64,000 bases of DNA from Prevotella sp. (GTDB taxonomy: Bacteria > Bacteroidota > Bacteroidia > Bacteroidales > Bacteroidaceae): the NCBI GenBank assembly GCA_016291595.1, contig JAEEXN010000003.1, positions 35,308 to 99,307 on the forward strand, in the 5' to 3' direction. Both the position numbers and the translations under genes were made by a program. Under the pieces are notes generated by a model. The model saw nothing but the letters and a program-made list of their open reading frames with translations, did not search any database and was not told the origin of the DNA. Below, piece after piece: positions 4,690 through 10,210 of this stretch (position 1 is its first letter; each line of letters opens with the position of its first letter).

Positions 4690-6066
4690 TTATCCAAGCC
4701 TCTTCAGCTGAACGGTGAAGTGGCGCATAAGTGGAGCTTCCCATTCGATGGCCACACCGCGGGTGATTTCTGCGCGACGGTCGTACACGTTCTTCAGCGC
4801 GGCGGCTATCACGTTCATGTGGTTGTCGGTATAAACGCGGCGGGCAATACAGAGGCGCAGCAAGTCCAGTCCGCCAAAGCGGTTCTCACGGGTCACGGGA
4901 TCGCGGTCGGCAAGAATATAGCCGATTTCGCAACCGCGGATGCCTGCCTCAAGATAAAGCTCGCATGTTAATGTCTGAGCAGGGAACTCTTCCTTCGGCA
5001 CGTTGCAAAGCACCTTGTCTGCATCGATGAAAAGGGCGTGACCACCTACCGGACGCTGATAAGGAATGCCGTACTCGTCAAGTTTCTTTGCTAAGTATTC
5101 TACCTGGTGGATGCGAGTCTCAAGCATATCGAACTCCGTATTCTCGTCAAGGCCCACAGCCAGCGCATTCAGGTCGCGGCCGTTCAGGCCACCGTAGGTG
5201 AGGAATCCCTCGAAAGGAATGCAGAACTGTTTGGCACCTTCGTACCAGTCCTCACGGTTGGTGGCAATAAATCCACCCATATTCACCAGTCCGTCTTTTT
5301 TGGCCGACATAGTCATACCGTCAACGTAGCTGTACATCTCAAGCGCTATCTCCTTGATAGTCTTGTCGGCATAGCCTTCCTCGCGCTTCTTGATGAAGTA
5401 GCTGTTCTCGGCAAAGCGGGCAGAGTCCATCACCACCGGAACATTATACTTGTGGCAAAGTTCGCAGGTCTCACGGATATTCTTCATCGAGACGGGCTGT
5501 CCGCCTACGGTGTTGTTGGTAACGGTAAGTACCATGAAAGGCACGTTACCCGGATTCTCCTTCAGAACCTTCTCAAGTTTTTCCAACGAGACGTTACCCT
5601 TGAAAGGAATCTCGAGCTGGGTATCCTTAGCCTCGTCGATGGTTACATCGATGGCCTTTGCCTTACGGAACTCAATGTGCCCCTTGGTGGTATCGAAATG
5701 GGCGTTGCCAGGAACCACGTTTCCCTCTTTCACCAGATAGGAGAACAGCACGTTCTCGGCGGCGCGGCCCTGGTGAGTGGGGATGACATACTTAAAGCCG
5801 AAAATGCGCTGCACCACCGACTGGAACTTATAGAACGATGAGGCGCCGGCATAGCTCTCGTCGCCAAGCATCATTTCCGACCACTGGCGGTCGCTCATGG
5901 CTCCCGTACCAGAATCGGTCAGGCAGTCGATATACACTTGTTCTGCCTTCAGCATGAATACGTTGTAATGGGCTTCTTTCAGCCATTGCTCTCTTTCCTC
6001 ACGTGTGCTCTTGCGGAGCGGTTCTATCATCTTGATTTTCCAAGCTTCTGCGAATGGTATTTCCAT
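4690..6066 (-). CDS. tnaA: Tryptophanase (PLP beta-eliminating lyase)
   Basis: LTDSGT, GDESYAG, THQGRAAE and PLP-lysine SAKKD. Tryptophanase-type residues HFDTT, CEIG and MRHFT, versus FTTT, MERG and RFFT in tyrosine phenol-lyase. Confidence 0.88.
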   Translation of the reverse strand: MEIPFAEAWKIKMIEPLRKSTREEREQWLKEAHYNVFMLKAEQVYIDCLTDSGTGAMSDRQWSEMMLGDESYAGASSFYKFQSVVQRIFGFKYVIPTHQGRAAENVLFSYLVKEGNVVPGNAHFDTTKGHIEFRKAKAIDVTIDEAKDTQLEIPFKGNVSLEKLEKVLKENPGNVPFMVLTVTNNTVGGQPVSMKNIRETCELCHKYNVPVVMDSARFAENSYFIKKREEGYADKTIKEIALEMYSYVDGMTMSAKKDGLVNMGGFIATNREDWYEGAKQFCIPFEGFLTYGGLNGRDLNALAVGLDENTEFDMLETRIHQVEYLAKKLDEYGIPYQRPVGGHALFIDADKVLCNVPKEEFPAQTLTCELYLEAGIRGCEIGYILADRDPVTRENRFGGLDLLRLCIARRVYTDNHMNVIAAALKNVYDRRAEITRGVAIEWEAPLMRHFTVQLKRLG

Positions 6067-6131
6067 AAAAATACAATACTTATTAATAAGTTAATAAATG
6101 AATGGGGTGGAATGAAAAAGAAATCGTTTGT

Positions 6132-6157
6132 TGCGCACCGGCAATCGTCTGTGCGCA
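6132..6157 (-). promoter_or_regulatory. Hairpin in the tnaA leader just downstream of the uORF stop (candidate attenuator element)
   Basis: TGCGCAC-N12-GTGCGCA stem, followed on the minus strand by ACAAACGATTTCTTTTTC and a C-rich, G-poor tract. Confidence 0.5.
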
Positions 6158-6164
6158 TCGCATA

Positions 6165-6236
6165 TTAGCATGAAAAATGGTCAAGCTCCTTGATGTTGAT
6201 GAACTTGTGTGAAATAAATGCTGTTGTGTTTAACAT
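6165..6236 (-). CDS. Putative TnaC-like leader peptide, 23 aa, MLNTTAFISHKFINIKELDHFSC
   Basis: Manually translated; lies between a consensus promoter and tnaA; K11, N14, I15 and a C-terminal DH match E. coli TnaC. Confidence 0.65.
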   Translation of the reverse strand: MLNTTAFISHKFINIKELDHFSC

Positions 6237-6270
6237 AGATAAGGCAACGGTTGGTGCTTTTTGTACGCTG

Positions 6271-6302
6271 CAAATATATACATTTTTTATGTCACCTCCA
6301 AA
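6271..6302 (-). promoter_or_regulatory. Bacteroidetes primary-sigma promoter of the leader-tnaA transcript
   Basis: Minus strand TTTG (6302-6299), 20-nt spacer, TATATTTG (6278-6271), matching the TTTG-N19-21-TAnnTTTG consensus. Confidence 0.8.
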
Positions 6303-6322
6303 TCTTCAGCACGTTTTTTTCA

Positions 6323-7669
6323 TTATAAATCAGCTGTTTCCAATTGTTTGCGCAAACGGTCGGCGGCAGCGTCGACAATAATAATTACCTCGTCGTCTGT
6401 CTTGCCATTTTCAGGCTCGCTCAGCATACTCATGGGCATGTTGCTCACATCGCCGAAATACTTCAGCTTGCCCGTAACAGGGCTCATGGTGTAGATACTC
6501 AACTGCAGGCTACTGAATAGACTGAAGTCGACCATATAGTCCAGATTACAGTAATTGTAGATGAGTGCGAAGTTGCTGCCGCGGCATGCTGCCACCCGCT
6601 CATGACGCACGCCATTATTGAGGATGAGCTCCTGAGCCGGACGAATCTCATCGGCAGGGAAAAACTCCATCAGTCGTCTGAGGTGTTTCATCTGTCTGCG
6701 GCCTGGGTCAGCGAGCGCCTGTTGCCACGATTTCTGCGTACCGTTGGCCCCGTAGGCTCCTTGAGCCTCGCCGTTTCCTATAAACTGCATAATCTCGTTG
6801 TTGCCGTAAGTATGGCCACAAGCTCCGGCAAAGACCGACCAGTAGGCATAGCGGCGCATGTCGCTGTCCGTCCATCGGGGCTCATCGGGATTGTGCAGAC
6901 CTTGGGGAATATTCTCGTAAGAGGGCTCACCGTCGAGTACGGGGCGCAGGGGCTTGTAGCTGAAGCACGAGTCAACATATTGGAAGTTGTCCTCTTCGGT
7001 ACCGTCGGGAATGGGGTAGTACTTGTCCCGTCCACGTTGGTCGTAGCGGCGGTGGCCGCTTTGGAACATGTTAAAGTCCAGCCACTTGCGGTTATTGAAC
7101 CATTTGGCAGAGAAGGTGCGGCCACGCGGATGATAAGTCATCAGATGCGTGTGGTCGATGCGCTTGATGTTGGTTGCCAGCGAGTCCCACACCTCAGGGT
7201 ACACATTGCCCTCGATGTCGCCGCCCATCAGCCAAATAATGTTCCGGTATTTGCCGTAGCGCTGAGCCAGAAACCGCCCGTATTCGGCAGCCTGCGAGGC
7301 ATCCATCTGGCCGCCTTTCACTACTGATCCCCACACAGCAACCATCGCAATATAGATGCCACGCTGGCGTGCCTCACGCACAATGAAATCCATTTTGCGC
7401 CAGTTGGGTCTTGCCCCGTCGCCCTTGATGACCTGCACCTGCACCACGTTGAACTCGTTTTGCCGGCAATCGTCCAGATACTGGCATATTTCCTGGCGGC
7501 TGAGCTTGTGAGGCAGCAGCCATCCCGTGTCGCCCAGCCAGAAGAACGGCTTTCCATCGGCATGTTGCAGATAGCGGTTGTTGGCTGAAACGGAGAGTTG
7601 CCAGTTTTCGGCTGACACGTTTCCGAGCGTCAGCAGCGAGATCAATGTGGTGAGAATGCAGGTTTTCAT
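6323..7669 (-). CDS. Glycoside hydrolase, DUF4038 / GH140 (apiosidase-like)
   Basis: Signal peptide; DGKPFFWLGDTGW, NIIWLMGGD, LMTYHPRG, WLDFNMFQSGH, PVLDGEPSYE, GACGHTYG. Confidence 0.82.
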   Translation of the reverse strand: MKTCILTTLISLLTLGNVSAENWQLSVSANNRYLQHADGKPFFWLGDTGWLLPHKLSRQEICQYLDDCRQNEFNVVQVQVIKGDGARPNWRKMDFIVREARQRGIYIAMVAVWGSVVKGGQMDASQAAEYGRFLAQRYGKYRNIIWLMGGDIEGNVYPEVWDSLATNIKRIDHTHLMTYHPRGRTFSAKWFNNRKWLDFNMFQSGHRRYDQRGRDKYYPIPDGTEEDNFQYVDSCFSYKPLRPVLDGEPSYENIPQGLHNPDEPRWTDSDMRRYAYWSVFAGACGHTYGNNEIMQFIGNGEAQGAYGANGTQKSWQQALADPGRRQMKHLRRLMEFFPADEIRPAQELILNNGVRHERVAACRGSNFALIYNYCNLDYMVDFSLFSSLQLSIYTMSPVTGKLKYFGDVSNMPMSMLSEPENGKTDDEVIIIVDAAADRLRKQLETADL

Positions 7670-7686: not shown

Positions 7687-9807
7687 TTAGAATGTAATAG
7701 GAATCATGACTTTCACTCCGATGTTTCTTCCCATGTTGTAGAAGCCTTGTCCGCCGTCCTCGCGTTCGATGGGCAGATTCTTCATGCGGCTCAGATGACT
7801 CTGGTATGCCTTATTGGTCAGGTTCTCCCCGGTAAGGAAGAGCGAGAAAAGCTTTTTCCCGTTTTTGCAGATGTCTGTACCAGCCGCCATATTTAATAAG
7901 GTGTAGGCAGGAGTGGCTGTCTCCGTGCCATAGGCGGCATGATAGTGGTTCTGCCTGAAGTTGCAGTTGAGGCCAATCTTCACGAACGTATTACTGAACG
8001 TTTGTCCCTGCCGGAAGATGTCGTAGCGCAGTTCCGAGGCCCAGCGCGGAGCAGGTGTCATAGGCAGATACTTGCTGTCGGCAGGCTGATGGAGCTGCAC
8101 GGCATTTACATAACAGAAGGTATTGAGGAAATGCAGCTGGTCAACGGGATGGATGTCGAGGCTCGCCTCGCCGCCCCAAAGGCGTGCGTCGCCCTGCACA
8201 TACTTGAATTCGGGCAGTCCGTCCTTCATCTTGTCGCCATTCTGTTGGGCAAAGATATAGTTGTCGATAAGGTTTACGAACAGGGCCATTTGTGCCGAGA
8301 GATAGTCGTTGGTATAGTCCCAACCGGCGTCTATCTGCCAGCTGTGCTCAGCTTTCAGCTCGTTGTTGCCCACCTCGTAATGCTGGGTGCCTCCATGTCC
8401 GCCGTTCGAAGCCAGCTCGCTCAAGTTGGGAGCGCGGAATCCTTTCGAGAGATTCATGCGCAGGTGCATATCGTCCATCATGTGGTAAACGGCACCGGCG
8501 CTCCCTGAGAATCCTGTGAAGTTGCGGGTGAAACGGTCGAACTGTCCTGCCAGCGCAAAACTGTGCAGATGACGATTGTCGAGCCGCAGGCCGCCGGTGA
8601 TATTCCACTTTCCGATCTCGGTTCCGGCAGTCGCAAACGCACCGATGTCGAAAAGGTTATAGGCGGGAATAAGATACTCTTCGCCCAGGTTTTCCGACTT
8701 CTGGTACATGCCGTTGAGTCCAGCCATCAGCTTCCATCCGTTCAGCTCGGGCAGATGGTAGTGCAGGTCGTAGTTCAGGGTGTGCAGCTTGAGATATAGC
8801 CCCATCTCGTTTTCCTCCTCAAACTCCTTACGCTGGTTTTGCTGATAGCCCAGCAGCACCTTCATGCTTCCGTCACCCATATAGAACAGGTTGTCTATGA
8901 CGGCTTTGTAATGGTATATTTCTTGATAGGGAATGCCATGATGGTAGCTTTTGCCGTCGAAGGCCTCATGCTCATGATGATGCTCATCGTCATCGTCATC
9001 ATCGCCGTCGTGGTCGTGGTGGTGCTCGTGGGCGTCAATCATACTGGGCGTCACGTTGTAGTAGCCCATCCGCAGGTATGAGTGGCCCCAAGTCTTGTTC
9101 AGTCCCAGCAGTCCCGTCACAGCCCGTTCGGCAAACTGCGTGTTGGGCACGTAACCGTCCAGTTTGTTCTTATACGAGTGGGCCATCTTGTCGGTATATC
9201 GCCAGTTCCACACGAAGTCGTTCTTGTTGCCGGCAAAGCTCACCGAGTAGTCGAACAGTCCGTTGTTGGTCTGATACTCGCTGGTTACCGATGCACTCAT
9301 CCTGCCTGCTGGCAAGATCGGCTCGGGATGGAAAATCACCACGCCCGCCATCGCATCCGATCCGTAGAGCAGGCTGGCGGGACCTTTAATCACTTCCACG
9401 CGCCCGATGCTCAGCCCGTCGATCTCTATGCCGTGCTCGTCGCCCCATTGCTGTCCTTCCTGTCGTATACCGTCGTTGATGGTGACAATACGGTTGTAGC
9501 CCAGTCCGCGGATGACAGGCTTTGATATGCCGCTGCCGGTAGTAATTTGCGAAACGCCCGGCTGCCGCGAGATGGCATCGATGATATTCGTTGAAGAAAT
9601 GACTTGCAGCTCACGCTGGCTCAAGATGTTGACGGGAATGGGGAAATCCTTCTGTTTGGCGTCACCCGTCAAGCCTGTTACCACTACTTCGTTCAGCACG
9701 TGGTGGTGCTTGCTGCTGACGATGGTGTCCATTTGTGCATACGCACTATGCGCCGCTCCCAGCCACAGTATGGCGGTAAGCAGCATTAGAATATATGTTT
9801 TGTTCAT
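7687..9807 (-). CDS. TonB-dependent receptor with His/Asp-rich loop (probable metal uptake)
   Basis: TonB box LNEVVVTG; plug KPVIRGL..EGQQWGDEHG and VEVIKGPASLLYGSDAMAGV; FRAPNLSEL; C-terminal Phe; insert HEHHHDHDGDDDDDDEHHHEHE. Confidence 0.92.
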   Translation of the reverse strand: MNKTYILMLLTAILWLGAAHSAYAQMDTIVSSKHHHVLNEVVVTGLTGDAKQKDFPIPVNILSQRELQVISSTNIIDAISRQPGVSQITTGSGISKPVIRGLGYNRIVTINDGIRQEGQQWGDEHGIEIDGLSIGRVEVIKGPASLLYGSDAMAGVVIFHPEPILPAGRMSASVTSEYQTNNGLFDYSVSFAGNKNDFVWNWRYTDKMAHSYKNKLDGYVPNTQFAERAVTGLLGLNKTWGHSYLRMGYYNVTPSMIDAHEHHHDHDGDDDDDDEHHHEHEAFDGKSYHHGIPYQEIYHYKAVIDNLFYMGDGSMKVLLGYQQNQRKEFEEENEMGLYLKLHTLNYDLHYHLPELNGWKLMAGLNGMYQKSENLGEEYLIPAYNLFDIGAFATAGTEIGKWNITGGLRLDNRHLHSFALAGQFDRFTRNFTGFSGSAGAVYHMMDDMHLRMNLSKGFRAPNLSELASNGGHGGTQHYEVGNNELKAEHSWQIDAGWDYTNDYLSAQMALFVNLIDNYIFAQQNGDKMKDGLPEFKYVQGDARLWGGEASLDIHPVDQLHFLNTFCYVNAVQLHQPADSKYLPMTPAPRWASELRYDIFRQGQTFSNTFVKIGLNCNFRQNHYHAAYGTETATPAYTLLNMAAGTDICKNGKKLFSLFLTGENLTNKAYQSHLSRMKNLPIEREDGGQGFYNMGRNIGVKVMIPITF

Positions 9808-9856
9808 TCTGTAGCTTACTTTATTATTTGAAAATAACTTATTGATATAGATAAAG

Positions 9857-10210
9857 TTACAGAATGTATGGAGGCGCGCGTGTGGATTTGTAGGCTATGC
9901 TTCCTATTGGCAGCAGACTGCTGCAGTCGGTCAGGGCGCATAGGGTAGGGGTGAGAATAAATACGGTGATGAGAACGGTGGCAGCAACATACGGCAGATG
10001 GCACATCTGACAGATCACGCAGTCGTGAACTCCCATATGCATGGTGGTAAAGTGGCCGGAGTGTGGCTGATGGTTTACACATTGGGCGCACTCGTTCTCA
10101 TGGTTTGGCTGATACTCGTGGATATGAAAAAACGAGATAAAGAGCATGGGCAAGAATACTGCCAGCAGCACCCTCGACGCAAATGCTCTTCTCTTGTTTT
10201 TGTTACCCAT
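9857..10210 (-). CDS. DUF2946-like Cys/His-rich upstream ORF ending in RAPP
   Basis: N-terminal TM segment, HIH, CAQC, H-rich stretch, HDCVICQ, hydrophobic stretch, C-terminal RAPPYIL; TACCTTTG promoter box at 10247-10240. Confidence 0.78.
   Translation of the reverse strand: MGNKNKRRAFASRVLLAVFLPMLFISFFHIHEYQPNHENECAQCVNHQPHSGHFTTMHMGVHDCVICQMCHLPYVAATVLITVFILTPTLCALTDCSSLLPIGSIAYKSTRAPPYIL

Follow-up and report, generated by a model that had tools for sequence, protein, structure and literature searches.

Gut tryptophanase makes indole, which serves as a signal and from which indoxyl sulfate is derived. The regulation of the tryptophanase gene (tnaA) matters because, in one study (PMC13039869), the abundance of tnaA genes was not mirrored by fecal indole. 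Here, we ask whether the tnaA gene of a Prevotella sp. (assembly GCA_016291595.1) is controlled by a leader peptide that is read by the ribosome. The initial annotation of the window, i.e., the whole 64,000-nt stretch of DNA that was analysed (contig JAEEXN010000003.1, positions 35,308 to 99,307), had proposed that a short upstream open reading frame (uORF) encodes a TnaC-like, divergent or convergent nascent-peptide sensor without Trp. The features of the locus, in window coordinates, are as follows:

6271..6302, minus strand: promoter-like site of the Bacteroidota type (TTTG 6302–6299, 20 nt, TAtaTTTG 6278–6271)
6165..6236, minus strand: leader peptide uORF, 23 aa plus TAA, from translation and family conservation
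6174..6203, minus strand: conserved core F12–F21, aromatic-x-N-I-K-x-[RIL]-D-x-aromatic, from family counts; F21 is the putative stall position
6132..6157, minus strand: 7-bp-stem hairpin, from 7 nt past the stop codon; candidate polymerase pause
6067..6131, minus strand: U-rich spacer with C>G up to the tnaA ATG (12 C and 3 G by direct count); candidate Rho-loading region
4690..6066, minus strand: tnaA, tryptophanase, 458 aa (NF053783, 918.5 bits)

The layout described by the initial annotation was recovered throughout. The 23-codon uORF at 6236–6165 translates as claimed into a peptide with three Phe, two His, and no Trp, and the promoter-like site lies 34 nt 5′ of its ATG at 6302–6271, where TTTG, a 20-nt spacer, and TAtaTTTG match the Bacteroidota −33/−7 promoter consensus; a sigma-70 promoter and terminator scan made no call within the window leader. 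The 98 nt between uORF and tnaA are indeed U-rich and hold more C than G (21 C, 14 G). The 7-bp-stem hairpin was located at 6157–6132 (stem 6157–6151/6138–6132, 12-nt loop), and a U-rich run at 6123–6115 begins 8 nt past the stem and was not called a terminator. Taken alone, this hairpin is not beyond chance, and shuffled versions of the entire leader fold just as well (z = −0.81). An Rfam scan of 5900–6500 returned three chance snoRNA matches, all under the gathering score. The gene behind the leader is a tryptophanase, as had been claimed, and not a tyrosine phenol-lyase: ORF 6066–4690 scores 918.5 bits against the NF053783 TnaA model (cut-off 750) and 550.7 against the tyrosine phenol-lyase model, under its cut-off of 720.7. 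Rho is encoded in the window's genome, and no second copy of the leader was found there, the runner-up reaching 12.7 bits and having no start codon. In the sequencing runs, which consist of contigs that cannot show transcript ends, X5 covers parts of the leader thinly and neither X7 nor X9 reaches the uORF, which is missed by two of the three RNA runs; run X1 is probably DNA.

The leader peptide family

The window uORF is genuine, being one member of a peptide family that is widespread in Bacteroidales and shares the ten-residue core [FY]-x-N-[ILV]-K-x-[RIL]-D-x-[FY], followed by a stop codon 0–13 codons further on. For training, TnaA relatives were collected and the motif aromatic-x-N-[ILV]-K-x-[RIL]-D was sought up to 600 nt upstream. 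It occurred on the sense strand at 33 of 106 loci, which take in eight distant lyases and three loci with less than 100 nt upstream, and on the antisense strand at none. All 33 members carry F or Y two residues past the Asp, a position outside the search pattern, and have an in-frame ATG 8–18 codons ahead of the core and a stop 0–7 codons after it. A matrix built from the 33 training cores was then run at a threshold of 10 bits on new loci from across the order, for which 130 of about 200 matches were fetched, leaving 127 after two duplicates and one short locus had been dropped. Of these held-out Bacteroidales tnaA loci, 91 reached the threshold on the sense strand, and 0/127 did so on the antisense strand. 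The conservation upstream of tnaA that the initial annotation had proposed to look for is thus present, and it is far beyond chance.

Across all 124 members, which were picked with a matrix that favours Lys and are counted descriptively since kin are not independent, the core holds K in 124, D in 124, the final F/Y in 122, N in 118, and R in 109, with I or L in place of the Arg in the remaining 15, which form the window's clade. The first core position is F in 69, Y in 53, H in two, and W in none. The first reading had overlooked both K16, which is invariant, and the aromatic residue F21, which is nearly so. Conservation is concentrated in the C-terminal 10–13 residues, and the N-terminus is variable. 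An in-frame ATG opens the uORF in 113/124 members, with TTG or GTG candidates in 11, and a TAnnTTTG no more than 65 nt from the start of the uORF is present in 113/124 members compared with 7% in shuffles. The stop codon follows the last aromatic directly in 23 members (TAG 9, TAA 8, TGA 6), and the remainder extend by 1–13 codons.

Codon use argues that the peptide itself is under selection. The invariant Lys is encoded by AAA in 66 and AAG in 58 members and the invariant Asp by GAT in 67 and GAC in 57, an even split of silent codons; motif-based selection inflates residue invariance and pN/pS, but not such even synonymous codon use. All six codons are in use for the core Arg, third codon positions vary most, and other reading frames have no silent bias. 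In the 33 training cores, pS was 0.92 and pN 0.23, values inflated by motif selection. The cores at loci L031 and L002 encode the same protein as the window's with three and four DNA changes, respectively, all of them silent, and are followed by unrelated spacers.

Several features that had been singled out in the window peptide are clade-specific and were rejected as functional, namely, K11 (16/124 members), the DH dipeptide (H20 in 18/124, and DH out of register with F12-N14-I15), and the His codons. A leader that works by counting Phe and His codons is likewise unlikely, with His not conserved and only two aromatic positions conserved. We also rejected the K-x-R stretch as an arrest motif of the macrolide type (+X+), because the window's clade has I or L for R, and the conserved D and F beyond the motif further counter this reading. 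Searches of Pfam and NCBIfam with 81 members gave three weak single-member matches, none to a leader family, and PDB sequences gave no match to the leader peptides at E ≤ 10. Pattern matches that read F-x-N-M-K-L-R-D were discarded as leaders since they fall in a coding protein, DUF4250. The stretch F-[IVM]-N-M-K-L-R-D-x-Y begins some 12 residues into this 55-aa protein (L276:1468-1638 and 20-odd similar matches in L276–L305), resembling the leader in sequence and position, and the likeness may be chance.

Genes behind the leader

The leader is linked near-exclusively to tnaA and to other operons for the catabolism of aromatic amino acids or protein. In a blind scan of metagenomes for the DNA pattern, which was independent of tnaA, covered 50 of 64 parts, and finds only members with a stop right after Phe, at least 119 matches were listed. 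The next gene was TnaA in 92 of those listed, 11 reached the contig end, and 16 had no or another next gene, none of these with a promoter. Of the 81 listed matches with both a start codon and a promoter, 77 preceded tnaA and four reached the contig end. A profile search of 200 genomes of the window's family gave seven strong matches, the window included, all of them before tnaA.

The reverse does not hold: within the window's family, only six out of 26 tnaA genes are preceded by the leader. Many close tnaA relatives of the window have no leader and an unrelated upstream region, and no leader was found at tnaA loci labelled Alistipes. In Bacteroides thetaiotaomicron, PMC7366714 gives tnaA (BT_1492) a primary start that leaves a 23-nt 5′ UTR, which is too short to have room for a leader; this leaderless gene may explain why the leader was missed. 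TnaA is 91–98% identical among rumen records labelled Prevotella, Muribaculaceae, and Sodaliphilus (window 4690–6066; L031–L065), and within the window's genus, matches came from only seven out of 36 genomes, two of them partial or distant. Near-identity together with sparse occurrence suggests a horizontal spread of tnaA. The leader was not found upstream of four out of four tyrosine phenol-lyase genes or of five other tryptophanase-family lyases. Beyond the order, none of 29 tryptophanase-family upstream regions drawn phylum-wide (28 from outside the order, among the best 30 of about 150 matches) scored, and a profile search of 300 genomes of the phylum gave three weak matches outside Bacteroidales, none of which fits the strict pattern. 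Several Bacteroidales also encode ORFs of ~890 aa with two tandem tryptophanase-family domains (L027–L029, L360/L363).

Possible new contexts came from 40 pattern matches that were fetched as not adjoining a listed tnaA. Eleven proved to precede tnaA after all, 16 were chance-like, and one lay at a contig end. Four others stood before a fused oxidoreductase that matches indolepyruvate ferredoxin oxidoreductase best, at a score under the model cut-off (hereafter IOR-like), two of these uORFs having no ATG. Six stood before an ADP-forming acyl-CoA ligase, one before a SusC gene, and one before a thiolase-like gene 596 nt away. The leaders at IOR-like or acyl-CoA ligase genes are L309, L310, L313, L315, L317–L319, L322, L327, and L328, with two leaders on the single 2.4-kb contig of L327. 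In several loci (L317, L318, L322, L328, L340), ligase and oxidoreductase lie side by side or next to an aminotransferase or tnaA, a neighbourhood that fits the route from aromatic amino acids to aryl acids. No tryptophanase was found in seven of the genomes with an IOR-like or acyl-CoA ligase leader, which are 88–98% complete. The leader also stands, with its own promoter, before SusC in three genomes of one genus (L306, L307, L348; G375:C13, G397:C28, G524:C14), where tnaA was found in 0/14 genomes. At two of these, L306 and L307, further genes of the operon encode SusD, DUF4984, LRR and BACON proteins, and a subtilase (peptidase S8), so that it is likely a protein-utilisation locus.

Comparison with TnaC and the exit tunnel

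The reference for comparison was TnaC, the leader of E. coli tnaCAB (Pfam PF08053; b3707, L241). According to PMC8429421, it needs W12, D16, I19 (a medium-sized hydrophobic residue), and P24, the last at the site of stalling, for its function, while residues 1–8 are dispensable. In PMC8429421 and PMC10941005, the Trp side chain is held in a pocket between W12, I15, and D16 and the A752:U2609 pair, and its backbone by U746, G748, and uL22 K90. The Bacteroidales leader resembles this system as a short uORF between promoter and tnaA, with a variable N-terminus ahead of a conserved C-terminal core. Rho is encoded, and the spacer may resemble that of E. coli tna in being C-rich. In the ungapped register, F/Y12 takes the place of W12 and is followed by N14 and I15, with a basic residue at position 18 in most members.

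The differences are equally marked. The absence of W12, D16, and the terminal Pro from the window peptide extends to the family, in which Trp12 is found in 0/124 members, Lys stands at the Asp16 position and Asp at the Ile19 position in 124/124, and only two members end in Pro. Trp occurs anywhere in the peptide in only four of 124 members, always near the N-terminus and never in the core. Counted from the first core residue as +0, the Bacteroidales core ends at +9 compared with +12 in TnaC, and 86/124 members end before +12. Any of the three stop codons may stand directly behind the core, so that the leader is not RF2/UGA-specific; the spacer is 31–206 nt (median 83) compared with 220 nt in E. 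coli tna, and the leader also precedes operons without tnaA.

PF08053 or any NCBIfam leader model matched 0/81 members at E ≤ 1; PF08053 also missed two out of two gammaproteobacterial TnaC-like peptides, so a distant homology may have escaped this search. An hhalign comparison of the family with TnaC gave a probability of 0.2%, and E. coli TnaC reached at best −10.5 bits when scored with the family matrix (p = 0.25, or p = 0.08 with gaps). For seven fetched TnaC-type peptides, from a set spanning Aeromonas, Vibrio, Photobacterium, Microbulbifer, and a Salmonella plasmid (L459–L466), the register that places W on F/Y and also aligns N, I, and the basic residue was the best of 13 (p = 0.25). 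These gammaproteobacterial leaders likewise stand before tnaA, their core starts with aromatic-x-[NT]-[ILQ], and three of seven have an aromatic at +9. However, they have W at +0 and D at +4 in 7/7 and P at +12 in 5/7, whereas W at +0 or D at +4 occurs in 0/124 Bacteroidales members. Two Vibrio leaders (L460, L463) have the W and D and no Pro at +12. The similarity to TnaC is not significant and homology is not demonstrable by these comparisons; the Bacteroidales leader fails membership of the TnaC family and, on the best reading, works like TnaC.

On the ribosomal side, 23S rRNA positions U746, G748, A752, A2058, and U2609 carry the E. coli bases in five of five Bacteroidales genomes. The Bacteroidales host differs at uL22 position 90, which is Gln in all 28 Bacteroidales read, the window's genome included (L393–L422; 30 loci, two of which were not parsed), and 23S position 1782, like uL22 90 in the exit tunnel, is C rather than U in five of five genomes. 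As aromatic-x-N-I-K stands where TnaC has W-F-N-I-D, we speculate that the invariant peptide Lys16, at the position of Asp16 in TnaC, supplies the charge given by uL22 Lys90 in E. coli. The Q90 could equally mean that Trp cannot bind in the E. coli way.

Two other known systems were compared. SpeFL, an ornithine-sensing arrest peptide, is also an amino acid-sensing leader before a catabolic enzyme; it differs in ligand, gene, and hosts, and is set apart here by description rather than sequence. Attenuators that respond to tRNA charging carry runs of regulatory codons before biosynthetic genes, and like these, including the trp leader of Bacteroidota, the Bacteroidales leader has a uORF behind a Bacteroidota promoter and hairpins downstream. 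Unlike them, it has no core Trp codon, a conserved peptide, catabolic targets, and no Rfam match. Such attenuators should have clustered Trp codons and a conserved terminator and antiterminator, whereas here Trp occurs in 4/124 members, none in the core, and no pairing is conserved in position.

Proposed mechanism and its alternatives

The short variable N-terminus, C-terminal core, own promoter, and catabolic targets suggest an arrest peptide. Of the initial annotation, the nascent-peptide sensor stands as the best reading, and the specific TnaC look-alike features are not supported. We consider it probable that the peptide senses Trp, stalls the ribosome near Phe21, and relieves the premature termination of tnaA. 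From sequence, we infer translation of the uORF, stalling, Trp as the ligand, induction rather than repression, and a downstream switch. When Trp is plentiful, the free amino acid would occupy a site in the exit tunnel next to the aromatic-x-N-I-K segment of the nascent chain, and translation would be arrested at Phe21 or immediately past it. The stalled ribosome would prevent transcription from ending in the 98-nt spacer, allowing expression of tnaA and turning on indole production. A stall at or next to the final aromatic is suggested because 23/124 members stop right there and the others 1–13 codons later, and it should not be specific to UGA and RF2 because any stop codon occurs after this residue.

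For the downstream switch, we estimate about even chances for Rho occlusion, smaller ones for a hairpin or intrinsic terminator, and the smallest for translational control. The C>G bias of the spacer is modest, with a C/G ratio of 1.47 in the leader family, 1.18 at leaderless tnaA, and 0.97 in other UTRs of the window's own genome, a rough control. Stable hairpins (−8 kcal/mol or lower) follow the core in 66% of cases compared with 31% in shuffles, and loosely defined hairpin-plus-U sites at the same energy in 34% compared with 8%. Hairpins are thus enriched across the family yet not fixed in place, and no pairing of a terminator or antiterminator was conserved in position.

Against Trp sensing speak the missing W12, D16, I19, and P24, uL22 Q90, the want of a positionally conserved RNA structure, and the many tnaA genes without a leader. 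Also against it speak the leaders before IOR-like and acyl-CoA ligase genes in the seven genomes with no tryptophanase found, enzymes that would also serve Phe and Tyr. The leading alternative, which we hold to be a good deal less probable, is a broader aromatic sensor that reports protein digestion, through either free Phe, Tyr, or Trp in the tunnel or the charged tRNA at the final Phe/Tyr codon. The four IOR-like, six acyl-CoA ligase, and three SusC/SusD-peptidase S8 loci behind the leader fit such a sensor, F/Y in the place of W12 could reshape the pocket, and the last core position is restricted to F/Y in 122/124 members, with 88 of these 122 codons ending in U. This last bias may be compositional, as 70/122 codons at the first core position do likewise, and a lone codon would be a weak sensor of tRNA supply that leaves the invariant N, K, R, and D unexplained. 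The four tyrosine phenol-lyase genes without a leader and the Trp-specific enzyme that comes next in 92 of the 119 blind matches listed also weigh against this alternative.

It is unlikely that the peptide responds to a product or another cue (indole, aryl acid, pH) or acts with the opposite sign, stalling being a feedback that lowers tnaA expression. The loss of the E. coli Trp carboxylate contact through uL22 Q90 (contact as given in PMC8429421) would fit a different cue, and hairpins more common than in shuffles would permit wiring in either direction, but the rRNA pocket is intact. The catabolic leader-peptide operons known to us, tnaCAB and speFL-speF, are moreover induced by their substrates.

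Slightly less credible still is a peptide that acts in trans as a small protein, e.g., on tryptophanase, or that causes a ligand-independent pause. A conserved protein sequence is not in itself proof that the peptide acts in cis, and the small protein DUF4250 has ten residues much like the core, about as far from its start. However, members are as short as 15–20 aa with unconserved N-termini, are always the first ORF after a promoter of their own, stand before a transporter and enzymes unrelated to one another, and have a conserved part that finishes at or near the stop codon. A conserved RNA or DNA element with an incidental ORF, for which a weak pairing signal inside the core codons could be cited, is very improbable given the most variable third positions, the six Arg codons, the other frames without silent bias, and the lack of an Rfam family at gathering score.

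Extending the preferred Trp-sensing reading, we tentatively suggest, as a possibility more doubtful than the reading itself, that Bacteroidales evolved their own arrest peptide for Trp, fitted to a uL22 without Lys90, in which the peptide Lys takes the carboxylate contact, and that the sensor also moved before aromatic 2-oxoacid fermentation genes and peptidase-bearing SusC/D loci. If true, gut, rumen, and sediment anaerobes would possess a ribosome-read regulon for the catabolism of protein and aromatic amino acids, and the pairing of uL22 Q90 with the peptide Lys would bear on the adaptation of arrest peptides to ribosomes that differ between lineages. Arrest peptides that sense metabolites are known in small number; we found none described for Bacteroidota and, in the open-licence literature, no description of a Bacteroidales tna leader peptide. 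From the ten-residue signature, it can be predicted for a given Bacteroidales tnaA gene whether it should be inducible, and leaderless ones, such as that of B. thetaiotaomicron with its 23-nt UTR, should escape leader-based control.

Elsewhere in the window, a TonB-dependent receptor with a His/Asp-rich run is encoded at 7687–10210 on the minus strand, behind a 117-aa His/Cys-rich protein, and the two look like a metal uptake pair.
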